Source: Paludibacteraceae bacterium (lineage in GTDB: Bacteria; Bacteroidota; Bacteroidia; Bacteroidales; Paludibacteraceae). From it: a stretch of 64,000 nt of DNA. The stretch is from positions 4,850 through 68,849 of the forward strand of contig JAGBRL010000100.1 in assembly GCA_017632345.1 (NCBI GenBank). Reading direction: 5' to 3'. A program made the position numbers and the translations under genes. The notes under the pieces were generated by a model. The model was given only the letters and a program-made list of their open reading frames with translations, was not told where the DNA came from and ran no database searches. This document shows, piece after piece, positions 1-33,696 of the stretch (its first letter is position 1; each line of letters starts with the position of its first letter).

Positions 1-201
1 TGCAAGGGGCTGGACATCTATTTGGAGCGTGAAGTGAAGTGTGAGATTCTTCATTTGGAAGAGCCTCGCGCCATAAAATACAAAGGGGTGAAGATGCAGA
101 GTTTCGACGTGGAGTTCAGGACAAACGTCTCCTTGCCCGACTTTTGCGGCCTTGGCAAAGGCACCAGCCTTGGCATGGGAATGGTGAAAATGATGAAGTG
201 A
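1..201 (+). CDS. cas6: Cas6-like CRISPR endoribonuclease, C-terminal fragment (5' end outside window)
   Basis: Frame 1 is open from nt 1 to TGA 199-201 (..EFRTNVSLPDFCGLGKGTSLGMGMVKMMK*). The glycine-rich G-x-G-x5-G-x-G tail is the C-terminal loop typical of Cas6 RAMPs. It lies directly 5' of cas10. It is absent from the ORF track because it has no start in the window. Confidence 0.6.
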   Translation, partial: CKGLDIYLEREVKCEILHLEEPRAIKYKGVKMQSFDVEFRTNVSLPDFCGLGKGTSLGMGMVKMMK

Positions 202-218
202 AATGTAAAAAATATAAT

Positions 219-2801
219 ATGAAAGATAGAGTTAGAGAACATATTTATTTAGCAGCGCTGCTGCACGATATCGGCAAGTTTTATCAGAGGGCGGATAAGT
301 CGTTTTCGGATAAAACGAATGAACTGTCGGACTCTGTAAAGAATATAGCAGGGCTTATTTGTCCATTGAATAATGAGGGTAGATTTGGATATCAGCATAC
401 AGTATGGACGCTTCAATTTTTGACGGAAATAGAAGCGACACTTAAGAAGATACCGGACTTTTCTCAGAACCTGTTTGATGGAGAGAAAAATCAGGATACA
501 ATTTTTCAGTTGGCATCATTCCACCATAAGCCAAGTACGGAATTGCAAGCTTTGATTTCGCTTGCAGATTGGTGGAGTGCCGGTGTTGATAGAAGAGTAA
601 AACTGGAGGAAGAGAATGGTGATATAGACGCTATTAAGTGGGGAAAGAATCGTTATAAGCAGATACCGCTTTATTCGGTGTTTAATGGCATTAATGAAGG
701 AAAGGGTAAGTCTGCATTTGGGCTACGTTCGTTGTCAATAGAAAAAGACGGATTTTTTCCGAATGATGTAAATTGTCCGCAAGATGGTATTTCGCAAGAA
801 AAGTATGAAAATCTTTGGATGGGATTTAAGAAAGAGTTTGATAAACTGCCAACAGATACATTTGACGGCTTTGCAGAGAGTTTGTTGAATCTGTTGAAGA
901 AATATACTTGGTGCATTCCATCTAATACAACAGATATGTCTAATGTGAGTCTATTTGACCACTTAAAGACAACAGCTGCGTTTGCAGATTGCTTGTATAT
1001 GTATAAGCAAGAAAAACCAGATGATTTTATATATCAAAATCAGCGTTTGACTTTAAAAGAAGGAGTCCAGCCGGTGTTGTTGTTAGGTGGTGATTTGTCC
1101 GGTATCCAGAAGTTCATCTATAACATTGCATCGCGCAAGGCTGCCGTTAGTTTGAAAGGACGTTCGTTCTATCTGCAATTGTTGATAGACTCTATAATTC
1201 AGAGAATTATCCAACATCCAGACATTAAAGCAACACTTGGTCATGTGGTGTATTCTTCTGGAGGTAAGTTTTATATGCTGTTACCTAATACAGAGAAAGT
1301 TAAGTCTGCTATTAAGGGGTTGAAAAGAAGTATAGAACAAGAACTTTGGAAGCAACATCATGGACAGCTTGTGGTAAATATGGATTATGTTCCGTTTGCA
1401 TACAATGTAGGTGGAAAAGGAATCGATTTTGAGAATCAAAAGAATCAAGAAATAGGTTTGTTATGGAAAGCACTTGCTGAGAATTTGACATCACAGAAGA
1501 ATCAGAAGTTTAAGAATGTACTTTTGAGTGAAGATTTCTTTAAAGTTCAGGAAGTCGGGGGTGATGTAAAAGTTTGTGCGGTGACAGGTATTGAATCTAG
1601 TATTGATAAATGTGTACCTATTGACCCTAAAGAAAAAGAAGAAGAAAGAACTTATGTTTTAAAGAAAGTCAAAGAACAAGCAGATTTAGGGAAGACCCTG
1701 AAAGATGCAGATTATATTGTTACGTACCGTTCTGATGATACAAACAAGTATATAAAGAATAAGGTAAAGATTGATATTCATAGTGCTGGTATTCATAATT
1801 ATTTGTTTGATCAATTAGAACTAACGGTTGATGATGCAGATTTTAGGAATATTACTTCTGCAGACACTTGTAGAGTGAAACGAATTAATAACACAGATTT
1901 TCTTGCAGCTCCGCTAAAAGGCAATGGTTGCAGTTATGGTTTTCAGTTCTATGGAGGTAATAAGCAAGCGCAGAAAGATGGTAGAGATAAAACTTTTGAA
2001 GAGTTGGCGGACGGAAGTTATTTAGGCGTTTTGCGTATGGATGTTGATAATCTTGGTTCGATATTTATCAAAGGACTTCCTGATAAGGATAAAAGTTTCT
2101 CAGCATATTCAACGCTCTCGTTTATGTTAGATTACTTTTTTAGTGGTTATCTGAATACTATACGTGAAAAGTACGAGGAGGATGTAAACATATTATATTC
2201 CGGAGGTGATGATGTCTTTGCTGTAGGTCGTTGGGATAAATTGATTGAATTTGCGGCTGATATTCGTAAGGACTTTGCAAAGTTTGTAGGAAGAGAAGAT
2301 ATATCTATTTCCGGAGGTATTGCAATAGTCGGGGATAAATTTCCTATAGCAAAAGCCGCAGAGTTGGCAGGAGACGCAGAGCATAATGCCAAAAGTAATA
2401 GCGAAGCGAAGAATGCTTTCAATATGTTTGGTGAGACAATTTCATGGAAAGATGACTTTGGATATGTGGAGAGATATAAGAAAGAATTTGTAGATCTAAT
2501 AAAAAATGAAAATCTTTCAAAAGGTATCTTGCATAAGATTAAAACATATGCATTGATGATAAAAGATAATAAAGAGAAAGAAAAACGAGGCGATAGGAAG
2601 AATATGAGTTATTTGTGGCACACTTCATATTATTTGTCTCGCTATATGGAAAGTCATAAGAAGAATCAGAGTGTATATGATTTTTGTAAGAATTTGAGAG
2701 ATAAAGAATTGTTGGATACTCGTAAATATGAGTTGATGGCAGTAGCAGCCCGTTGGGCAGAATTAGAGTTAAAAGAAAATAATGTAGAACAAAATAAATA
2801 G
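219..2801 (+). CDS. cas10: Cas10/Csm1, type III-A large subunit (HD nuclease plus GGDD cyclase palm)
   Basis: I chose ATG 219 (MKDRVREH..) because the ORF-track start at 144 overlaps the cas6 tail. Motifs: HD motif LAALLHDIGKF (His-Asp = nt 264-269), palm-1 loop GGDLSGIQKFIY, cyclase motif YSGGDDVFAVG (GGDD = nt 2202-2213). Confidence 0.93.
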   Translation: MKDRVREHIYLAALLHDIGKFYQRADKSFSDKTNELSDSVKNIAGLICPLNNEGRFGYQHTVWTLQFLTEIEATLKKIPDFSQNLFDGEKNQDTIFQLASFHHKPSTELQALISLADWWSAGVDRRVKLEEENGDIDAIKWGKNRYKQIPLYSVFNGINEGKGKSAFGLRSLSIEKDGFFPNDVNCPQDGISQEKYENLWMGFKKEFDKLPTDTFDGFAESLLNLLKKYTWCIPSNTTDMSNVSLFDHLKTTAAFADCLYMYKQEKPDDFIYQNQRLTLKEGVQPVLLLGGDLSGIQKFIYNIASRKAAVSLKGRSFYLQLLIDSIIQRIIQHPDIKATLGHVVYSSGGKFYMLLPNTEKVKSAIKGLKRSIEQELWKQHHGQLVVNMDYVPFAYNVGGKGIDFENQKNQEIGLLWKALAENLTSQKNQKFKNVLLSEDFFKVQEVGGDVKVCAVTGIESSIDKCVPIDPKEKEEERTYVLKKVKEQADLGKTLKDADYIVTYRSDDTNKYIKNKVKIDIHSAGIHNYLFDQLELTVDDADFRNITSADTCRVKRINNTDFLAAPLKGNGCSYGFQFYGGNKQAQKDGRDKTFEELADGSYLGVLRMDVDNLGSIFIKGLPDKDKSFSAYSTLSFMLDYFFSGYLNTIREKYEEDVNILYSGGDDVFAVGRWDKLIEFAADIRKDFAKFVGREDISISGGIAIVGDKFPIAKAAELAGDAEHNAKSNSEAKNAFNMFGETISWKDDFGYVERYKKEFVDLIKNENLSKGILHKIKTYALMIKDNKEKEKRGDRKNMSYLWHTSYYLSRYMESHKKNQSVYDFCKNLRDKELLDTRKYELMAVAARWAELELKENNVEQNK

Positions 2802-2808
2802 TTAAGTT

Positions 2809-3255
2809 ATGGCATGGGATAGAAATGATTTAATTCCGCAGACTGAGATTACCGAAAAGGTAACTCAAAGAACCGTAGATTTTGCAAAACGTTTTGGTGC
2901 GTATTTAGGTAAAGATGATAGACGTCCATCTACGGATAGGAATGGTAGAAATATAGAAATTAAAGAATCAAAGTTGACAACAAGTCAGCTTCGTAAATTC
3001 TTTGGAGAAGTGAAAAGACAACAAATGTCAGGATATGACGAAACGGATTTTGTCCTTCTTAAGCCAAAGTTAGCTTATGCTGTGGGACGTGCAAAGGATG
3101 CAAATGCAAAAATTAATGATTTTTACTTTGTGATTTCTAAAGCGATAGACAATGTGAGTTCTGAATTGCACTTTAAGAATTTTATAAAAGTATTTGAAGC
3201 TATTGTAGCTTATCATAAAGCAGCAGAAGAGAGTAAATTAAATGATAACAATTAA
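2809..3255 (+). CDS. csm2: Csm2, type III-A small subunit
   Basis: 148 aa, all-helical looking. It has TTSQLRKFFGEV and a C-terminal FEAIVAYHK, as in Csm2/Cas11 small subunits. Its position between cas10 and csm3 fits. Confidence 0.8.
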   Translation: MAWDRNDLIPQTEITEKVTQRTVDFAKRFGAYLGKDDRRPSTDRNGRNIEIKESKLTTSQLRKFFGEVKRQQMSGYDETDFVLLKPKLAYAVGRAKDANAKINDFYFVISKAIDNVSSELHFKNFIKVFEAIVAYHKAAEESKLNDNN

Positions 3256-3266
3256 TTGTATAGGAA

Positions 3267-3914
3267 ATGAAACAGTTAGTAAAGAAAATAAAGATAAATA
3301 CCACTATAGAATTATTGACAGGTTTACATATTGGTGGTAGCAGTGATAATGTTGAAATTGGAGGTATTGATAACCCTGTTATCAAGATTGCAACAAAGGA
3401 CAATCAGCCATATATTCCTGGAAGTTCTTTGAAGGGAAAGATGCGTTGTTTGTTGGAGCAAATTGCAGGTGCGGCAAAAGTGGGTGGTAACTCAGATGTA
3501 AATAATTTGTTTGGATTCTCGCAGAGTAATCAACCATCTAAACTAATAGTTCGCGATGCAATGTTGCAAGAAAAATCAGCTAGCGAATTGAGAGCGTGTT
3601 ACAATTTGGATATGCCATATACAGAGGGTAAGTGGGAGAATGTGATAGATAGAGTGAAAGGTACAGCTGAACATCCTCGTCAAATGGAGCGTATTCCAGC
3701 AGGTGTCTTTTTTGATGTAGAGTTCGTTGTCAATGTATGGGATGATGACAAAGAGAAAGATTTGTTAGACCTATTACAAAAAGGAATCAACGCACTTGAA
3801 AACGATTATTTGGGTGGTAGTGGTTCTCGTGGTTATGGTCAAATCAAGTTTGATGACTTGAAGTATTCGCACGCAGATGAAACCACAGAATGGAAAATGG
3901 TAGAAGGTAAATAG
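3267..3914 (+). CDS. csm3: Csm3 (Cas7-family RAMP, backbone / target-RNA cleaving subunit)
   Basis: TGLHIGGS..IGGIDNPVIK contains the catalytic-position Asp35 (nt 3369-3371). Also present: the GSSLKGKMR RAMP motif and a G-rich loop GGSGSRGYG near the C-terminus. Confidence 0.9.
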   Translation: MKQLVKKIKINTTIELLTGLHIGGSSDNVEIGGIDNPVIKIATKDNQPYIPGSSLKGKMRCLLEQIAGAAKVGGNSDVNNLFGFSQSNQPSKLIVRDAMLQEKSASELRACYNLDMPYTEGKWENVIDRVKGTAEHPRQMERIPAGVFFDVEFVVNVWDDDKEKDLLDLLQKGINALENDYLGGSGSRGYGQIKFDDLKYSHADETTEWKMVEGK

Positions 3915-4927: not shown

Positions 4928-6634
4928 ATGGAAACAATAAATAAGAAATATGACTTAAAGATAGAAGTGCTTACGCCTCTGTCTATTGGTGCAGGAGCGG
5001 AAAAGGATTGGGTTAGAGGAGTGGATTTTGTTGTGAATAAAGGAAAAATATACAAACTCAATCTAAAGAAAATAGTCAGAGAGGGTGTGAATATAGACCG
5101 GTTGACATCTTTCTTTGCTTCTAAAAATGAACAAGGAATCATTAACTTAATAACAGAACCCAAATTAGAGAAAGTTTCTGATTTTGTGATGCCTTTGCCG
5201 GCAGATTCTCCTAACGATATAAAGGCATTTGTAAAGAATCAGTTGACAGGGAAGCCTATCTTGGCAGGAAGTTCTTTGAAGGGGGCTATCCGTTCCATCT
5301 TATTTGATTATTTGCGAGATAGGGAGCATGATGAAAAACAGGTATTTGGAAGTTCTGTAAAAGGAGATGAGTTTATGCGTTTCATCAAAATCTCTGATGC
5401 AGAATTTGATGGTACCTCTCTTGTAAATACCAAGATATTCAATTTGCAAAAGAAAGGAAATTGGATAGGAGGATGGAAGCATGGAGGGCGAGATACTGGC
5501 GATACTTTTAGCCCCAAAGGTTTTAATACAATATATGAGTGTTTGAAACCAATGCAGTGTGGTTTTGCAAGTATAATGTTGTCATTGAGTCAGTTTGATA
5601 AAATTGATAACCATTCATACCAGCAAGAGAAAAGAGGTATATTAAACAATGATTTGTTTAAGGTTATAAATAACCATACAAAAGAATATTTGAAGAAAGA
5701 AAAAGCTTTTTTTGAGGAGTATTCTGCAGATAAAACCAATTTAATAGTTGATTCAATAAACAATTTGTTGAATCTTATACCTTCTGACAATTCCTATTGT
5801 ATTTTGAAAATGTCCGCTGGCTCAGGTTTTCATTCTATTACAGGAGATTGGCAGTTTGAAGATTATTCTATTGATTCAATAACTTTAAAACGTAATGGAG
5901 GTACCGATAAAAGTTTTGGATATAATATCGATGGTAAAAAATCTAAATCTGCAAAATCTCGTAAAATAGCAGTCTATGGTGAACACTTTGATTTAATGGG
6001 TTTTGTGAAACTCACAGCGATAAGCGAAGAAGAAAAAGAGAAAGAACGGTTAGAACGAGAGGCTTTAGCTCGTGAGCAGGCAGAAAATGAAAGGAAACAG
6101 AGAGAAGAGCAAGAGCGATTAGAGAATGAACTAAAGAAAAAGGAGGAAGAGTTTGCTAGTTTTTATAAACTTGCGGAAGAGGCATATTCTGCAGAACAAT
6201 GGTCGGAAGTTTTGCAACATATTGAGAGTGCAGTACGTATTTTCTCTGATAGGTCATCACGCTTTGATTCTTTAAAGAGTATTGCGAATGAATATATAAA
6301 GTTGCAAGAACAACAAAAGGCTATAGACGAGGTAAAGCAAAAAGAGGATGAAGAGCGTAAAATTGCTAATAAGGTATCTCTTGCTGAAAAAATTGCAGGT
6401 ATGAACAAAATTCCAACATTGTGTGGAAATGTTAAGCAATGGATGAAATATAATAATTTAGGGGAACTTACAGAAGATGACAAAGTTGTATTAAAGAGTA
6501 AATTATTAGATTTAGGTAAGTCTTTGAAAGAGAAAGAGTTTAAAAAGCAGATGAATTCTTCTATAAAAGATTTGACTTTGATTCTTGGTCAAGACCTTGC
6601 TCAGCAATGGTTTGATGAAATTGTTAAAGGATAA
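4928..6634 (+). CDS. csm5: Csm5 RAMP fused to a ~200-aa charged/helical C-terminal extension
   Basis: The N-terminal 365 aa have RAMP features (LTPLSIGAG, LAGSSLKGAIRS, MSAGSGFHSITG). From Ser366 (nt 6023) onward comes EEEKEKERLEREALAREQAENERKQREEQERLENELKKKEEE and then a further helical region. This part is not found in canonical Csm5. Confidence 0.8.
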   Translation: METINKKYDLKIEVLTPLSIGAGAEKDWVRGVDFVVNKGKIYKLNLKKIVREGVNIDRLTSFFASKNEQGIINLITEPKLEKVSDFVMPLPADSPNDIKAFVKNQLTGKPILAGSSLKGAIRSILFDYLRDREHDEKQVFGSSVKGDEFMRFIKISDAEFDGTSLVNTKIFNLQKKGNWIGGWKHGGRDTGDTFSPKGFNTIYECLKPMQCGFASIMLSLSQFDKIDNHSYQQEKRGILNNDLFKVINNHTKEYLKKEKAFFEEYSADKTNLIVDSINNLLNLIPSDNSYCILKMSAGSGFHSITGDWQFEDYSIDSITLKRNGGTDKSFGYNIDGKKSKSAKSRKIAVYGEHFDLMGFVKLTAISEEEKEKERLEREALAREQAENERKQREEQERLENELKKKEEEFASFYKLAEEAYSAEQWSEVLQHIESAVRIFSDRSSRFDSLKSIANEYIKLQEQQKAIDEVKQKEDEERKIANKVSLAEKIAGMNKIPTLCGNVKQWMKYNNLGELTEDDKVVLKSKLLDLGKSLKEKEFKKQMNSSIKDLTLILGQDLAQQWFDEIVKG

Positions 6635-6641
6635 AACAATC

Positions 6642-6673
6642 CCCCTGCCACTCCGGCAGGGGTTCTTTTTTTT
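6642..6673 (+). terminator. Intrinsic terminator of the csm operon
   Basis: CCCCTGCC (6642-6649) / GGCAGGGG (6655-6662), a 5-nt loop, then TTCTTTTTTTTTG, 8 nt after the csm5 stop. Confidence 0.8.
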
Positions 6674-6818
6674 GATTTCTTTACAAGACTTCATAAGTTA
6701 TACAGTCCTTTTATAACAAAAATCTTTGGACTATACCGTCTGTTTGTTACAAGAATTGCTAAATTATACCGTCATTTTATTACAATATTTTTATAATTAT
6801 ACCGTCATTTCATTACAA
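6665..6818 (+). repeat. Five direct repeats at an exact 33-nt period (22-nt core TTATACCGTCATTTTATTACAA, 11-nt unrelated linkers)
   Basis: Unit starts are 6665 (half-degenerate, only ATTTCTTTACAA kept), 6698, 6731, 6764 and 6797. The cores are TTATACAGTCCTTTTATAACAA, CTATACCGTCTGTTTGTTACAA, TTATACCGTCATTTTATTACAA and TTATACCGTCATTTCATTACAA. The last core ends 12 nt before ATG 6831. Confidence 0.85.
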
Positions 6819-6830
6819 AAAACATAGCGT

Positions 6831-8171
6831 ATGATAAGGAGATTGGCAATACATAAATTAAGAGAATGGAGATATTCTGAAGATCGGAAACCTCTGATAA
6901 TAAGGGGTGTTCGTCAGGTTGGAAAGACAACCTTGGTGAAAGAGTTTGCCAAGGAGTTTGATGTTTTTTTGCATCTTAACCTCGAGCGTAGTAAAGATTC
7001 CGAGCTATTTGAACAGACAGATGATGTGGCTCAATTGCTTCAATCTATCTATTTTCATAAAAAGCAGGAGAAAAAAGATGGTTCTGTACTTCTTTTCATA
7101 GATGAGATACAAAATTCAAAAAAGGCGGTTGCTATGTTGCGTTATTTCTATGAAGAAGCTCCGGAGATTCATGTAATTGTGGCAGGTTCTTTGTTAGAGA
7201 CGGTGATGGATGTCCGTAAAATCTCATTTCCGGTGGGACGAGTAGAGTTTATGTCATTGCGTCCGTGTTCTTTTTTGGAGTTTTTAGGCGGATTGGGCGA
7301 AGATTTTGACAAAGAACTTGTAGAGAATTTCAGCGTTGAGTCTGTTGTTCATGACCGTGTGATGCGGCTTTTTCGAGAGTATGTTTTGGTGGGTGGAATG
7401 CCGGCGGTGATTGTGCAGTATGCTAAAAAGAGAGACATCTTGTCGTGTGCGAGCGTGTTTAACTCATTGTTGCAAGCCTACAAAGATGATGTGGAGAAAT
7501 ATACAAGCAGCAAAACAATGGTGAAGGTGATACGCACGATAATGGACTATGGTTGGCAGAGTGCGGCAGAGACTATCTCGTTTGAAGGATTTGGCGGAAC
7601 CAGCTATCGGTCGAGAGAGATGAGCGAGGCTTTTCAAATCATCGCTAAAGCTATGTTGACAGAGTTGGTCTATCCAACATCAGATACCCAAGTTCCGATA
7701 TTGCCCAACTTTAAGAAACGTCCTAAGTTGTTGTGGGTGGATACAGGTATTGTCAATTATGCATCCAAAGTGCAGAACGATGTTTTTTCTGCAAAAGATA
7801 TATGTGACGTGTGGCGAGGCAGGATAGCGGAACATATAGTGGCTCAAGAACTTGTGGCGTATGACAATGATATATCTCTTCGTCATAACTATTGGCGCAG
7901 AGACAAGGAGGGGTCTGATGCAGAGGTTGATTTTCTTTATCAGTTCAAGAGCTTAGTGGTTCCGATAGAGGTGAAGTCCGGGCATATTGCCAAACTTAAA
8001 TCGTTGCATCTTTTTATGGAAAAAGCTCCGCACGCCATAGCAATCAGAGTTTGGTCTAATCCTTATTCTGTTGATAATGTGACAACTTCGGGAGGAAAGC
8101 AATTTAAGTTGTTCAACGTTCCGTTTTATTATGTTGGGCAAATAGAGAGGATATTAGAGAAGGAGTTGTGA
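6831..8171 (+). CDS. AAA+ ATPase of the COG1373 type (AAA_14 + DUF4143) with a C-terminal PD-(D/E)xK-like nuclease core
   Basis: Walker A GVRQVGKTT and Walker B LLFIDEIQ. The C-terminal AEVDFLYQFKSLVVPIEVKSG gives a D..ExK arrangement. Confidence 0.8.
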   Translation: MIRRLAIHKLREWRYSEDRKPLIIRGVRQVGKTTLVKEFAKEFDVFLHLNLERSKDSELFEQTDDVAQLLQSIYFHKKQEKKDGSVLLFIDEIQNSKKAVAMLRYFYEEAPEIHVIVAGSLLETVMDVRKISFPVGRVEFMSLRPCSFLEFLGGLGEDFDKELVENFSVESVVHDRVMRLFREYVLVGGMPAVIVQYAKKRDILSCASVFNSLLQAYKDDVEKYTSSKTMVKVIRTIMDYGWQSAAETISFEGFGGTSYRSREMSEAFQIIAKAMLTELVYPTSDTQVPILPNFKKRPKLLWVDTGIVNYASKVQNDVFSAKDICDVWRGRIAEHIVAQELVAYDNDISLRHNYWRRDKEGSDAEVDFLYQFKSLVVPIEVKSGHIAKLKSLHLFMEKAPHAIAIRVWSNPYSVDNVTTSGGKQFKLFNVPFYYVGQIERILEKEL

Positions 8172-8470
8172 TGAAAAGTGTATATTGTTGTGATTGTGTT
8201 GAATGTTAGTTAGTTGTGAAATTGAGAAGAACTAGTATTCTTTCTGGCAATGCTTTTCGCTTGGTTGTGTGTGAAAATATTCGCTTTTTTTTGATAATTC
8301 ACATAAAAAGATTAAATTTGAAAGAGCATCATTATTCATATTTAGGTGCAATGAATTTGAAAATATGTTGTACTTTAGTGAAATAGGTGTAGAAAAGAAG
8401 TTTAACTTGAAAACTAATAATTCGCGATATATCTGTGTAAGGTATAGTGTGTGCAAAAAAGAAGAAAAGT

Positions 8471-10957: not shown

Positions 10958-12071
10958 TTACTCTTCTCCGCCGAACTCCATCAGATACGCCTTAATGAAC
11001 GCGTCAATGTCTCCGTCCATAACAGCTTGGACGTTAGAAGTCTGGTAGTCCGTTCTATGGTCTTTCACACGTCTGTCGTCAAACACGTAACTTCTGATTT
11101 GCGAACCCCATTCGATTTTTTTCTTGCCAGCCTCAATCTTAGCGCTTGCAGCTCTTCGCTTGGCAAGTTCCTTTTCGTATAGCTGAGACTTCAAGAGACG
11201 CATAGCGTTATCTTTGTTGCCGAACTGCGAACGGCTTTCGGTGTTTTCGATCACAATCTCTTCAGTTTCACCAGTGTCCTCGTCTTTGTACAAGTAATGC
11301 AGACGCACCCCTGTTTCCACCTTGTTCACGTTCTGACCGCCAGCGCCGCTTGAGCGGAAAGTGTCCCATGACAAGTTAGCCGGATTGACCTCCACTTCGA
11401 TAGAGTCGTCCACCAGCGGCACCACAAACACCGAGGTGAAAGATGTCATACGTTTTCCCTGCGCGTTGAACGGAGATACGCGCACAAGTCTGTGCACGCC
11501 GTTTTCGCTCTTCAGGTATCCGTAGGCCATATCGCCTTCAATCTGCAGCGTAACGGTCTTTATGCCCGCTTCGTCGCCCTCTTGAAAGTTAGTCAGCTCG
11601 CATTTGTAACCCTGACGTTCGGCCCAGCGCTGATACATACGGTAAAGCATGCTAGCCCAGTCCTGAGCCTCTGTTCCGCCGGCGCCAGCCACGATTTTGA
11701 GAACAGCGCCCATCTTGTCTTCCTCTTTGCGGAGCATGTTCTTCATCTCAAGGTCTTCTGTGCTGGTGAGAGCCTTTTCGTAAACAGCGTCAACCTCGTC
11801 TTCGGTCATCGCCCCCTCTTTGCAGAAGTCAAAAGCGAGTTCCAGCTCGTTGCACACATCCTCCACCTCATTGTAAAGTTCGACCCATTTCTTCAGGTCC
11901 TTCACCTTCTTCATCTGAGCCTCCGCGCGCTTCTGGTCCTCCCAAAATCCGGGGTCCTGAGTTCTTAGTTCTTCTTCTTCAATTTGTACAATCTTTGCAT
12001 CGATGTCAAAGATACCTCCTCAACGCAGACTTGCGTTCCAACAAATTCTTCAGTTGGTCTATCGTTATCAT
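10958..12071 (-). CDS. prfB: Peptide chain release factor 2, requires programmed +1 frameshift
   Basis: ATG 12071 gives MITIDQLKNLLERKSALRRYL, then an in-frame TGA (12008-12006). The +1 frame continues DIDAKIVQIEEEELRTQDPGFWEDQKRAEAQMKKVKDL.. into ORF 10958-11914, which contains SGAGGQNVNKVETG (GGQ motif). Confidence 0.93.
12005..12020 (-). other. RF2 recoding site AGGAGG TAT CTT TGA C (SD-like element plus slippery CUU-UGA-C)
   Basis: Read directly on the minus strand. AGGAGG is at 12020-12015, CTT at 12011-12009, TGA at 12008-12006 and C at 12005. Confidence 0.9.
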
Positions 12072-33000: not shown

Positions 33001-33696
33001 CTATAGTTCAAACGAAGCGTGGATAGAGACCTTTGGCGCAGGTGCTTCAATAACTACAGCCGGTGCAGGCGCTTCCACGATAACTGGTTCGTTCACAACC
33101 ATATATCCGTTGTGATGAGGAGCGAACCACATGCCTTCTCCGTGAAAATATGCCACGTTTCCAACTACAACTCTTTCACAATGGAAAGGAAGTGCATGAA
33201 CGTATGTGTTCACGGGAATTGTCACAACTTCATAACCATAAGTCGGATGAGGTCTGTAATACACGCCGTTGTGGTGATAATAGCACACATTGTTGATGTA
33301 GAACGGACGAGCCGAGTGATGGATATGTCTGTGATACCTCGGACGTGGCGGCACATGGCGATGCACATGATGGTGAGCCGGCTTGTGCACATGGTGATGT
33401 GCTGGTTTATGCACATGATGGTGCTTTGGTGCCGGTTTGTGAGCATGATGGTGCTTCGGAGCAGGCTTGTGATGGTGCTTCGGAGCCGGAGCAGGCTTGT
33501 GAGCGTGATGCTTCGGAGCCGGAGCTGCCTTATGTTCTTTGCGAGCCTGACGTTCGCCGCCACGGTTGCTTCTTACTTCGCTTCGCGTATTTTGCTGTCC
33601 GCGAGAGCGGTTGTCTCTTTGCGCTTCTGCACTCATTCCGAATGAGAAGATAAATGCAATCAGTATTGCAAGTATTTTATTTATTGATGTTTTCAT
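33001..33696 (-). CDS. Secreted histidine-rich repeat protein (function unknown)
   Basis: Signal peptide MKTSINKILAILIAFIFSFGMSAEA. Tandem HKPAPKHHH(A/V) units follow, then a Tyr/His-rich C-terminal domain. Confidence 0.7.
   Translation of the reverse strand: MKTSINKILAILIAFIFSFGMSAEAQRDNRSRGQQNTRSEVRSNRGGERQARKEHKAAPAPKHHAHKPAPAPKHHHKPAPKHHHAHKPAPKHHHVHKPAHHHVHKPAHHHVHRHVPPRPRYHRHIHHSARPFYINNVCYYHHNGVYYRPHPTYGYEVVTIPVNTYVHALPFHCERVVVGNVAYFHGEGMWFAPHHNGYMVVNEPVIVEAPAPAVVIEAPAPKVSIHASFEL
33316..33534 (-). repeat. In-frame tandem repeats encoding (H)KPAP(AP)KHHH(A/V)H units
   Basis: Residues 55-127 of the protein contain 28 His by my count. The DNA shows repeated GTGCACATGGTGATG / GTGCTTCGGAGC-type units. 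Confidence 0.8.

Follow-up and report, generated by a model that had tools for sequence, protein, structure and literature searches.

The 64,000-nt stretch of Paludibacteraceae DNA analyzed here (the window, contig JAGBRL010000100.1) contains a short array of phased direct repeats that stands between a csm operon and a gene for an ATPase-nuclease of the COG1373 family, and this array and its relationship to the ATPase gene are the subject of our analysis. Upstream of the array are csm1/cas10, csm2, csm3, csm4 and a long csm5, with an intrinsic terminator, identified by a terminator scan, dividing csm5 from the array. Downstream of the ATPase gene are the housekeeping genes hemW and prfB, a gene for an AMP-binding enzyme, rnc, fabF and acpP. 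The initial annotation of this DNA had described five direct units at an exact 33-nt phase (6665-6818), the first of them partial and lying at the T-run of the terminator and the last ending 12 nt before the ATG at 6831. That description was confirmed: the interval holds four complete 22-nt cores and one truncated core in exact 33-nt phase. In window coordinates the features are as follows:

6642-6674, plus strand: intrinsic terminator of the csm operon (hairpin 6642-6662 and T-run)
6665-6686, plus strand: array unit 1, truncated; box 2, ATTTCTTTACAA, alone is kept (6675-6686) and the 5' part is the terminator T-run
6698-6719, plus strand: array unit 2, TTATACAGTCCTTTTATAACAA
6731-6752, plus strand: array unit 3, CTATACCGTCTGTTTGTTACAA
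6764-6785, plus strand: array unit 4, TTATACCGTCATTTTATTACAA, the consensus sequence of the subfamily (box 1, ACCGTC; box 2, TTTRTTACAA)
6797-6818, plus strand: array unit 5, TTATACCGTCATTTCATTACAA
6831-8171, plus strand: ATPase-nuclease gene (COG1373, PADLOC PDC-S01); 446 aa, AAA_14 plus DUF4143 with a C-terminal PD-(D/E)XK motif

Tandem Repeats Finder (TRF) reported the array at 6681-6818 with a period of 33, 4.2 copies and a score of 127. When both strands of the 64 kb were searched with the consensus 22-mer at up to three mismatches, all matches were confined to the array, and a degenerate consensus returned the four full sites and none besides, in agreement with the earlier impression that the window holds no further copy of the core. 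Matches to the 22-mer occurred in none of 100 dinucleotide-preserving shuffles. The core is asymmetric and bipartite, the centers of box 1 and box 2 being about one helical turn apart, and the 33-bp spacing of the units is close to three helical turns. The array had also been placed exactly at a junction between AT-rich and host-like DNA. This placement is not exact because the change in G+C is gradual, the profile running at 0.34-0.40 up to 7000, 0.43 in the ATPase gene, 0.37 at 8-9 kb and 0.43-0.53 beyond.

The product of the gene behind the array has an N-terminal AAA_14 domain (PF13173, E = 1.7e-25) and a C-terminal DUF4143 domain (PF13635, E = 2.2e-17), the latter listed within the PD-(D/E)XK superfamily (PMC3424549), and matches the PADLOC PDC-S01 profile over its full length (PDLC04788, E = 8.1e-178). 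The Walker A (G31-K32-T33) and Walker B (D91-E92) residues are invariant in 46 homologs, as is the nuclease motif D367...E380-x-K382. Surveys describe PDC-S01, an ATPase fused to a PD-(D/E)XK domain, as a candidate defense family, which is reported to rank fourth in abundance among the defense candidates of prokaryotes and first among single loci in the genomes of the rumen. The AlphaFold2 model of the protein (pLDDT, the local distance difference test as predicted, 79; predicted template modeling score, pTM, 0.70) begins with an AAA+ core, after which come a helical lid, a segment of alpha-alpha-alpha-beta-beta order (residues ~228-302) and a PD-(D/E)XK-like alpha/beta core. Foldseek comparison of the model with the PDB gave weak matches only, led by ORC4/5 and clamp-loader subunits (E ~4e-4, TM ~0.2), and sequence searches of the PDB with the single protein and with a profile gave no match.

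The array motif, TTATACCGTCnnTTTRTTACAA, was found in 44 further loci besides the window (comparison loci are given L numbers). A two-unit DNA pattern run on one-genome-per-species bacterial and archaeal contigs yielded eight loci, all in Bacteroidia metagenome-assembled genomes (MAGs), and a related pattern run on metagenomes yielded 36. An ATPase gene of the same subfamily follows the array on the same strand, at a distance of 2-99 nt, in 26 of the 44 loci; among the remaining loci, several end at a contig edge. Nearly all spacings between neighboring units (112 of 116) are exactly 33 nt. In a matrix of 133 distinct units, on which the search patterns have had some conditioning effect, the information is 1-2.2 bits at core positions (box 1, A5-CCGTC-10, ~2.2 bits per position; box 2, T13-TTRTTACAA-22), and 0.05-0.5 bit at positions of the 11-nt linker. 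The claim that conservation sits on the cores therefore stands, but the accompanying one, that the linkers are unrelated to one another, was too strict; they are of low information. Genes of the csm operon are present in only two of the 26 loci with both array and ATPase gene (L011 and L020, the two closest orthologous loci) and in none of the 13 loci that have at least 1.2 kb of upstream sequence. In the Paludibacteraceae MAG locus L008, window positions 6681-8189 recur at 94% identity behind dxs and a hypothetical gene. The array and the ATPase gene are thus one module, which is independent of the csm operon.

This independence bears directly on a suggestion of the initial annotation, namely that a mobile element with the csm operon as its cargo ends here in a Tn7-like series of transposase or recombinase sites. 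Several sites of 22 bp stand in direct orientation, as do the 22-bp TnsB sites of Tn7-family ends, the minus strand of each core starts with TTGTAA, and the array is at the edge of the cas genes. However, Tn7-family ends differ in having an inverted second end, of which there is none on either strand of the 64 kb, and tns genes, which are absent here; no transposase or recombinase gene was found near the locus, where the annotated neighbors are cas6, csm1-5, the ATPase gene and hemW to acpP. Further upstream, in the metagenomic copy of the contig (L001), only cas6 and the CRISPR array are seen. Furthermore, every unit is oriented towards the ATPase gene, the promoter of which is overlapped by units in relatives, and the array accompanies the ATPase gene in loci without csm. 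The occurrence of the array before COG1373 genes that are not beside cas genes, such as that in L008 behind dxs, had been named in advance as grounds for abandoning the mobile element, which is contradicted and, in our estimation, extremely improbable; transport of the csm operon as transposon cargo is no longer suggested for the window. The same occurrence favors the other proposal made at the outset, a phased operator or iteron-like array controlling the ATPase gene.

The regular layout of repeats and linkers beside a type III system also raises the question of whether the array acts as RNA, be it as a non-coding RNA made up of repeats, as a 5' leader or as a CRISPR-like array in miniature, particularly since the last unit would fall in the 5' untranslated region (UTR) in the window's clade. 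The CRISPR array of this locus is known from L001, which is the same contig in a public metagenome and in whose upstream continuation (1-3371) the 37-nt repeat CTCAAAAAGTAAGTTCCAAAACAACAAGGATTAAGAC occurs ~35 times, ahead of a Cas6b-like gene and csm1-5. Comparison with this repeat, which the initial annotation had proposed as a check, revealed no relationship to the 22-nt core, and the 11-nt linkers are low in complexity and information, unlike CRISPR spacers, which are unique and ~30-40 nt long. Rfam gave nothing at gathering thresholds over the array (E = 0.09-0.8, noise, over the terminator alone), folding of the array gave no structure, the predicted fold being weaker than that of shuffled sequence (z = +1.5), and in most relatives the units are upstream of the -7 promoter box. 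An RNA role is likewise contradicted by these results and we regard it as very improbable.

The 33-nt period extends well beyond the subfamily of the window. Homologs of the ATPase were picked by protein similarity alone, viral contigs being scanned three times and plasmids searched by tblastn, with annotation of 17 regions; this gave 73 non-redundant upstream regions from six phyla (Bacteroidota, Bacillota, Actinomycetota, Pseudomonadota, Fusobacteriota and Chlamydiota), and self-similarity was measured as the strongest ungapped lag in each upstream region. The best lag was 31-35 or 63-68 nt in 59 of the 73 regions, against a chance expectation of 19% (binomial p = 2e-30; this and the other family p-values are approximate because relatedness was ignored beyond k-mer de-duplication), with a lag of exactly 33 nt in 42 regions and of 32 nt in seven. 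Strong arrays, above the score threshold, precede 44 of the 73 homologs; among 81 control promoters, taken from these loci and from the window, the threshold was passed by five (Fisher p = 1e-13). Of these five, four are either orphan arrays or share their intergenic region with an ATPase gene, and in the remaining one (L016) two orphan-like units precede an ispD-like open reading frame (ORF). An earlier, smaller test of the upstream period gave a Mann-Whitney p of 1e-7. Arrays typically have 2-4 units and their median end is 38 nt 5' of the ATG.

The motif that is repeated, on the other hand, differs by subfamily, even for adjacent paralogs. Distant COG1373 paralogs have other tandem repeats in front of them at an unchanged period, the second ATPase gene of L027 being preceded by four copies of TTGAAAAGTGTAT and the paralog in L012 by three copies of ACAYTTTTTGGCACATA; the motifs of the Collinsella and Agathobacter arrays are CACATTTTCCGATGGAAAAACGTG and AAAATGCGATTTTGTGGTAAA, respectively, that of Acinetobacter and Vibrio is the palindromic ACAYTTTTATGCGCATAAAARTGT, and that of Criblamydia is ATTTATCCnnnnTTTTCTCTAAAA. 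A 32-33-nt phased array with a subfamily-specific motif is therefore a general trait of the AAA_14/DUF4143 (PDC-S01) family. Many of the motifs have in common an A-tract plus an RTG half-site, and phased pairs of AAAARTG were found in 17 of the 73 arrays versus none of the 81 controls. This shared half-site argues for one conserved DNA-reading module, i.e., the family's own protein. No other gene is consistently linked to the arrays among the 17 annotated regions, and PADLOC treats the family as a single-gene system.

These observations limit the scope for another host factor, be it a nucleoid protein, a transcription factor or part of a sigma or anti-sigma system, to regulate these genes through sites that the ATPase itself does not bind. 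Orphan arrays that precede unrelated genes (L004, L005 and L009) could mean a regulon, and the DNA-binding domain of the ATPase is only putative. However, motifs differ between adjacent paralogs and among subfamilies of six phyla while the period and half-site persist, which would need a matching family of unlinked factors. In addition, no neighboring gene is conserved, and the orphan array of L046 belongs to a demonstrably decayed ATPase locus. We consider such a factor unlikely.

It is also conceivable that the array has no dedicated binder, and consists of phased A/T-tracts that curve the promoter DNA or of duplicated promoter pieces that tune or phase-vary expression. A T- or A-run is present in every motif, 33 bp is close to three helical turns, and the number of copies varies among close orthologs: 3 (L020), 4.5 (the window), 5.5 (L011) and 11-12 (L008, L027 and L044). 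Against this, the strongest conservation is at bases outside the A-tracts (A5-C-C-G-T-C10, up to 2.2 bits) and is subfamily-specific, the period is missing from the control promoters of the same genomes, and linkers drift while cores are held, a signature of base-specific recognition. An array with no binder is, in our view, quite improbable.

In relatives, the position of the units relative to the promoter is consistent with a regulatory function. Promoters of Bacteroidetes have a -7 box, TAnnTTTG, and a weaker -33 TTTG (PMC7366714). Such a box is present in 15 distinct promoters of the ACCGTC subfamily, and the distance upstream from it to the start of a unit is 27 or 28 nt in 12 of these, 29 nt in one and 17 nt in two. 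Based on the box position, a unit starting 27-29 nt upstream should cover roughly the -33 region. One further unit, present in the window's clade and in L013, has its start 5 nt into the -7 box (TATATTTGTACCGTC...) and would thus overlap the expected start site and the 5' UTR; in L011, L027, L044 and L020 the linker together with the initial 3 nt of this further unit makes up the true -7 box (TATATTTG or TATCTTTG). We take it as shown that the 33-nt phase is under constraint, that selection acts on the cores and that each paralog has a motif of its own, and that in relatives the units overlap the promoter.

The window itself lacks the further, promoter-bearing unit of its orthologs and has a degenerate match in its stead. 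A sigma-70 promoter scan was uninformative for a Bacteroidetes promoter.

6792-6799, plus strand: degenerate -7 box match, TATAATTA

At the other end of the array, L027 and L008 keep a leader of ~130 nt and ~7 more units at the position of the window's truncated unit 1, so the window and L011 appear to carry a deletion. As judged from these orthologs, the copy in the window is a trimmed module, which has apparently lost its leader and units at the distal end and, at the proximal end, the unit that bears the promoter. With the latter gone, the ATPase gene of the window may be poorly expressed.

We propose, with a probability of roughly 60%, that the array comprises the cognate binding sites of the downstream ATPase itself, for autoregulation or assembly. 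The ATPase is the favored binder because it is the sole consistently linked gene and because adjacent paralogs have different motifs; the conservation of the half-site and of the period across six phyla would imply one conserved reading module. In the mechanism that we envisage, the ATPase would bind its own array with one protomer or dimer per 33-bp unit, dimers being suggested by the palindromic units of some subfamilies, and would assemble cooperatively along the promoter and thereby set its own expression. Repression would be the likelier direction in the window's clade because there a unit covers the transcription start. The number of units (2-12) would change fast by unequal recombination.

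Co-variation of the protein with its motif offers a partial view of how the sites might be read. Over 37 arrays, motif similarity tracks best the identity of residues 201-305, the putative lid and winged helix (Spearman rho 0.35 overall, 0.23 for pairs of <50% identity; partial correlation given the AAA+ domain, 0.21), and values for the C-terminal domain are ~0.02-0.04, that is, no correlation.

Several points weigh against the ATPase as the binder of its own array, or against the mechanism just outlined. The specificity analyses disagree as to the part of the protein concerned: in contrast to the correlation with residues 201-305, six of the seven residues that separate the ACCGTC group from its sister group, in which box 1 is CYCCT, are in the C-terminal nuclease region (R329T, R357V and others). 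When the putative DNA-binding domain was modeled by itself the pLDDT was 56, and its fold matches, mostly winged-helix regulators (MarR, ArsR, PadR and TFE), all had E > 1. We infer the identity of the binder from linkage, paralog specificity and co-variation, and the inheritance of gene and promoter together inflates these correlations. There is no 33-nt signal in 14 of the 73 homologs (L072, L076 and L086, for example), and the sample of homologs is bacterial, although roughly one PDC-S01 gene in four is archaeal. Repression and class-II-type activation are both compatible with a unit placed near the -33 region. No TAnnTTTG is present in the window within 90 nt of the ATG, and the window copy may be a decaying instance of the module. 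Finally, an intact nuclease that docks on its own chromosome would need a safeguard.

Arrays of this general design are known from other systems. In layout the array resembles plasmid iterons and their Rep proteins (pPS10, R6K, RK2 and F), which have direct repeats of ~17-22 bp at whole-helical-turn spacing beside the gene of the binder, bipartite asymmetric sites, lineage-specific sequences and an autoregulatory use. The array differs from these in its 33-bp period (22 bp in iterons), in having an AAA_14/DUF4143 ATPase-nuclease rather than a Rep_3-type initiator adjacent, and in its chromosomal context among prfB, hemW, rnc and fabF, with no evidence of an origin; Pfam and NCBIfam annotation showed no Rep family near the array, where the neighbors are housekeeping genes. 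Rows of direct repeats that overlap a promoter, vary in number and cooperatively bind a protein encoded by the operon beside them are also found with ParR-parC (plasmid R1) and omega (pSM19035), binding being only predicted in our case. Those proteins, however, are small ribbon-helix-helix dimers acting on 7-11-bp repeats, whereas the candidate for the 33-bp units of the present array is an AAA+ protein of 446 aa that includes a nuclease domain.

For an AAA+ protein with a helical lid and a small domain that reads repeated, oriented DNA, as predicted for the ATPase, the precedents are Orc1/Cdc6 on origin recognition boxes and DnaA on arrays of DnaA boxes, and the best, though weak, structural matches of the ATPase model were to ORC4/5 (E = 4e-4). 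The TM-scores are ~0.2, however, and the winged helix is only putative here; the sites are at the protein's own promoter and not at an origin, and a PD-(D/E)XK domain is present. Regulators of the STAND/AAA type (MalT boxes, SARP/AfsR repeats) resemble the predicted arrangement in placing an NTPase oligomer on phased direct repeats at a fixed spacing from the promoter, but belong to another ATPase family, control other operons and have no nuclease domain.

The literature that we found on PDC-S01, COG1373 and DUF4143 consists of surveys, in which upstream repeats are not mentioned. We rate the array as a previously undescribed but conventional kind of cis-element, akin to tandem operator or iteron-like arrays. 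For annotators it provides a signature of 2-12 direct repeats with a 32-33-nt period, ending ~40 nt 5' of the ATG, that also marks decayed loci. Its occurrence in nearly all sampled members of the family predicts that the PDC-S01 ATPase-nucleases are sequence-specific DNA binders, and the array supplies an exact candidate DNA ligand for each protein, so that binding, structure and regulation become directly testable.

A tentative extension of autoregulation is that the arrays are working platforms and not only operators, on which an oligomer of the AAA+ nuclease is loaded or parked and a presumed defense protein is armed, restrained or released. Several features are compatible with this: the family is a defense candidate with an intact nuclease motif, the model of the ATPase has a weak fold resemblance to ORC-type AAA+ proteins, the 33-nt period is conserved across six phyla, and the longest arrays, with 11-13 units (L008, L027, L039 and L044), far exceed what an operator needs. 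However, most arrays have just 2-4 units at the promoter, for which simple autoregulation suffices, and the defense role of PDC-S01 is that of a candidate only; we therefore hold the platform to be doubtful. In its most general form, to which we give slightly more credence while still regarding it as speculative, PDC-S01/COG1373 proteins would be sequence-specific, DNA-templated AAA+ nucleases, each paralog having a private 22-bp site and assembling at 33-bp intervals, and the self-array at the protein's own promoter would be a platform for loading, parking or self-restraint that couples dose to activity and is not merely an operator. If platforms of this kind exist, they would provide a mechanism-level handle on an abundant, uncharacterized "defense" family, or on a family that is something other than a defense system.

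Other arrays of the motif stand apart from an intact ATPase gene. Orphan arrays were found in L004, L005, L009/L036, L010, L021, L033 and L046. In L046 the last ~30 codons of the ATPase gene, encoding its C-terminal tail, are left behind the array, and at least some orphan arrays are thus decayed ATPase loci. The array of L004 (689-776) is 5' of coding sequence for C_GCAxxG plus SIR2 and that of L005 (5869-5989) is 5' of an HTH_3-SocA/Panacea antitoxin gene, both settings being defense- or toxin-antitoxin-like, and the array of L009 is 5' of an inositol monophosphatase gene. In L033, a ~45-nt segment with one unit (…CAGGAAAAGGTTTAAAGnATTTAACCGTCnTTTTATTACAA) is present as a direct duplicate (3610-3705 and 6385-6450) flanking an 806-aa ORF with MG2/Plug domains, and in L015 and L042 units are located on both sides of the ATPase gene; recombination between arrays could account for these arrangements. 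A single-site scan of viral contigs gave 19 isolated matches and no arrays. This number is close to that estimated from the information of the motif and a rough collection size, and so provides no evidence that the motif marks phage DNA.

Directly after the stop codon of the ATPase gene, the window has a relic of a second array of different sequence:

8170-8186, plus strand: relic unit of the second 33-nt array, TGAAAAGTGTATAT

In L027 and L008 this second array (3-4 units) is 5' of a second COG1373 paralog, which has been lost in the window, and in L011 three of its units remain 5' of a 97-aa ORF. The sequence TTGAAAAGTGTA is the motif type of one paralog. The 12-unit locus of L008 (3990-5720) has an ATPase gene that is frameshifted by the deletion of 1 nt close to codon 48, being either a pseudogene or wrongly assembled, with insertion sequence-like ORFs (DUF4372 and DDE_Tnp_1) downstream of it. 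A different arrangement is seen in L072 (1200-1500), on a plasmid of Segatella copri DSM 18205, where a homolog 48% identical to the ATPase of the window has, instead of a 33-nt array, a long imperfect inverted repeat of GGAGTTAAG-type units around a short palindrome. The G+C-rich, prophage-like contigs L061-L070 have two perfect copies of a palindromic 33-nt unit, ATAAATGTGTAACGTCTACACATTTATGATAGG, ~75 nt upstream of the ATPase start, with the array end 8 nt 5' of the start codon.

Among the neighboring genes, csm5 (4928-6634) is unusually long at 568 aa; RAMP/Csm5 profiles match its N-terminal half alone, and weakly, and the C-terminal ~280 aa have no family match. The terminator hairpin behind this gene is also found 5' of the array in L027, there behind a different RAMP gene. 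Neither cas1/cas2 nor csm6/csx1 was seen in the available sequence. At 33361-33525, inside a coding call of the ORF scan (33001-33696, minus strand), tandem repeats of 24-, 30- and 33-nt period overlap one another (TRF scores 84-106). The prfB gene has a classical programmed +1 frameshift site, AGGAGG TAT CTT TGA C (12005-12020, minus strand), which accounts for the fact that model position 47 is where the listed ORF (10958-11914) begins.

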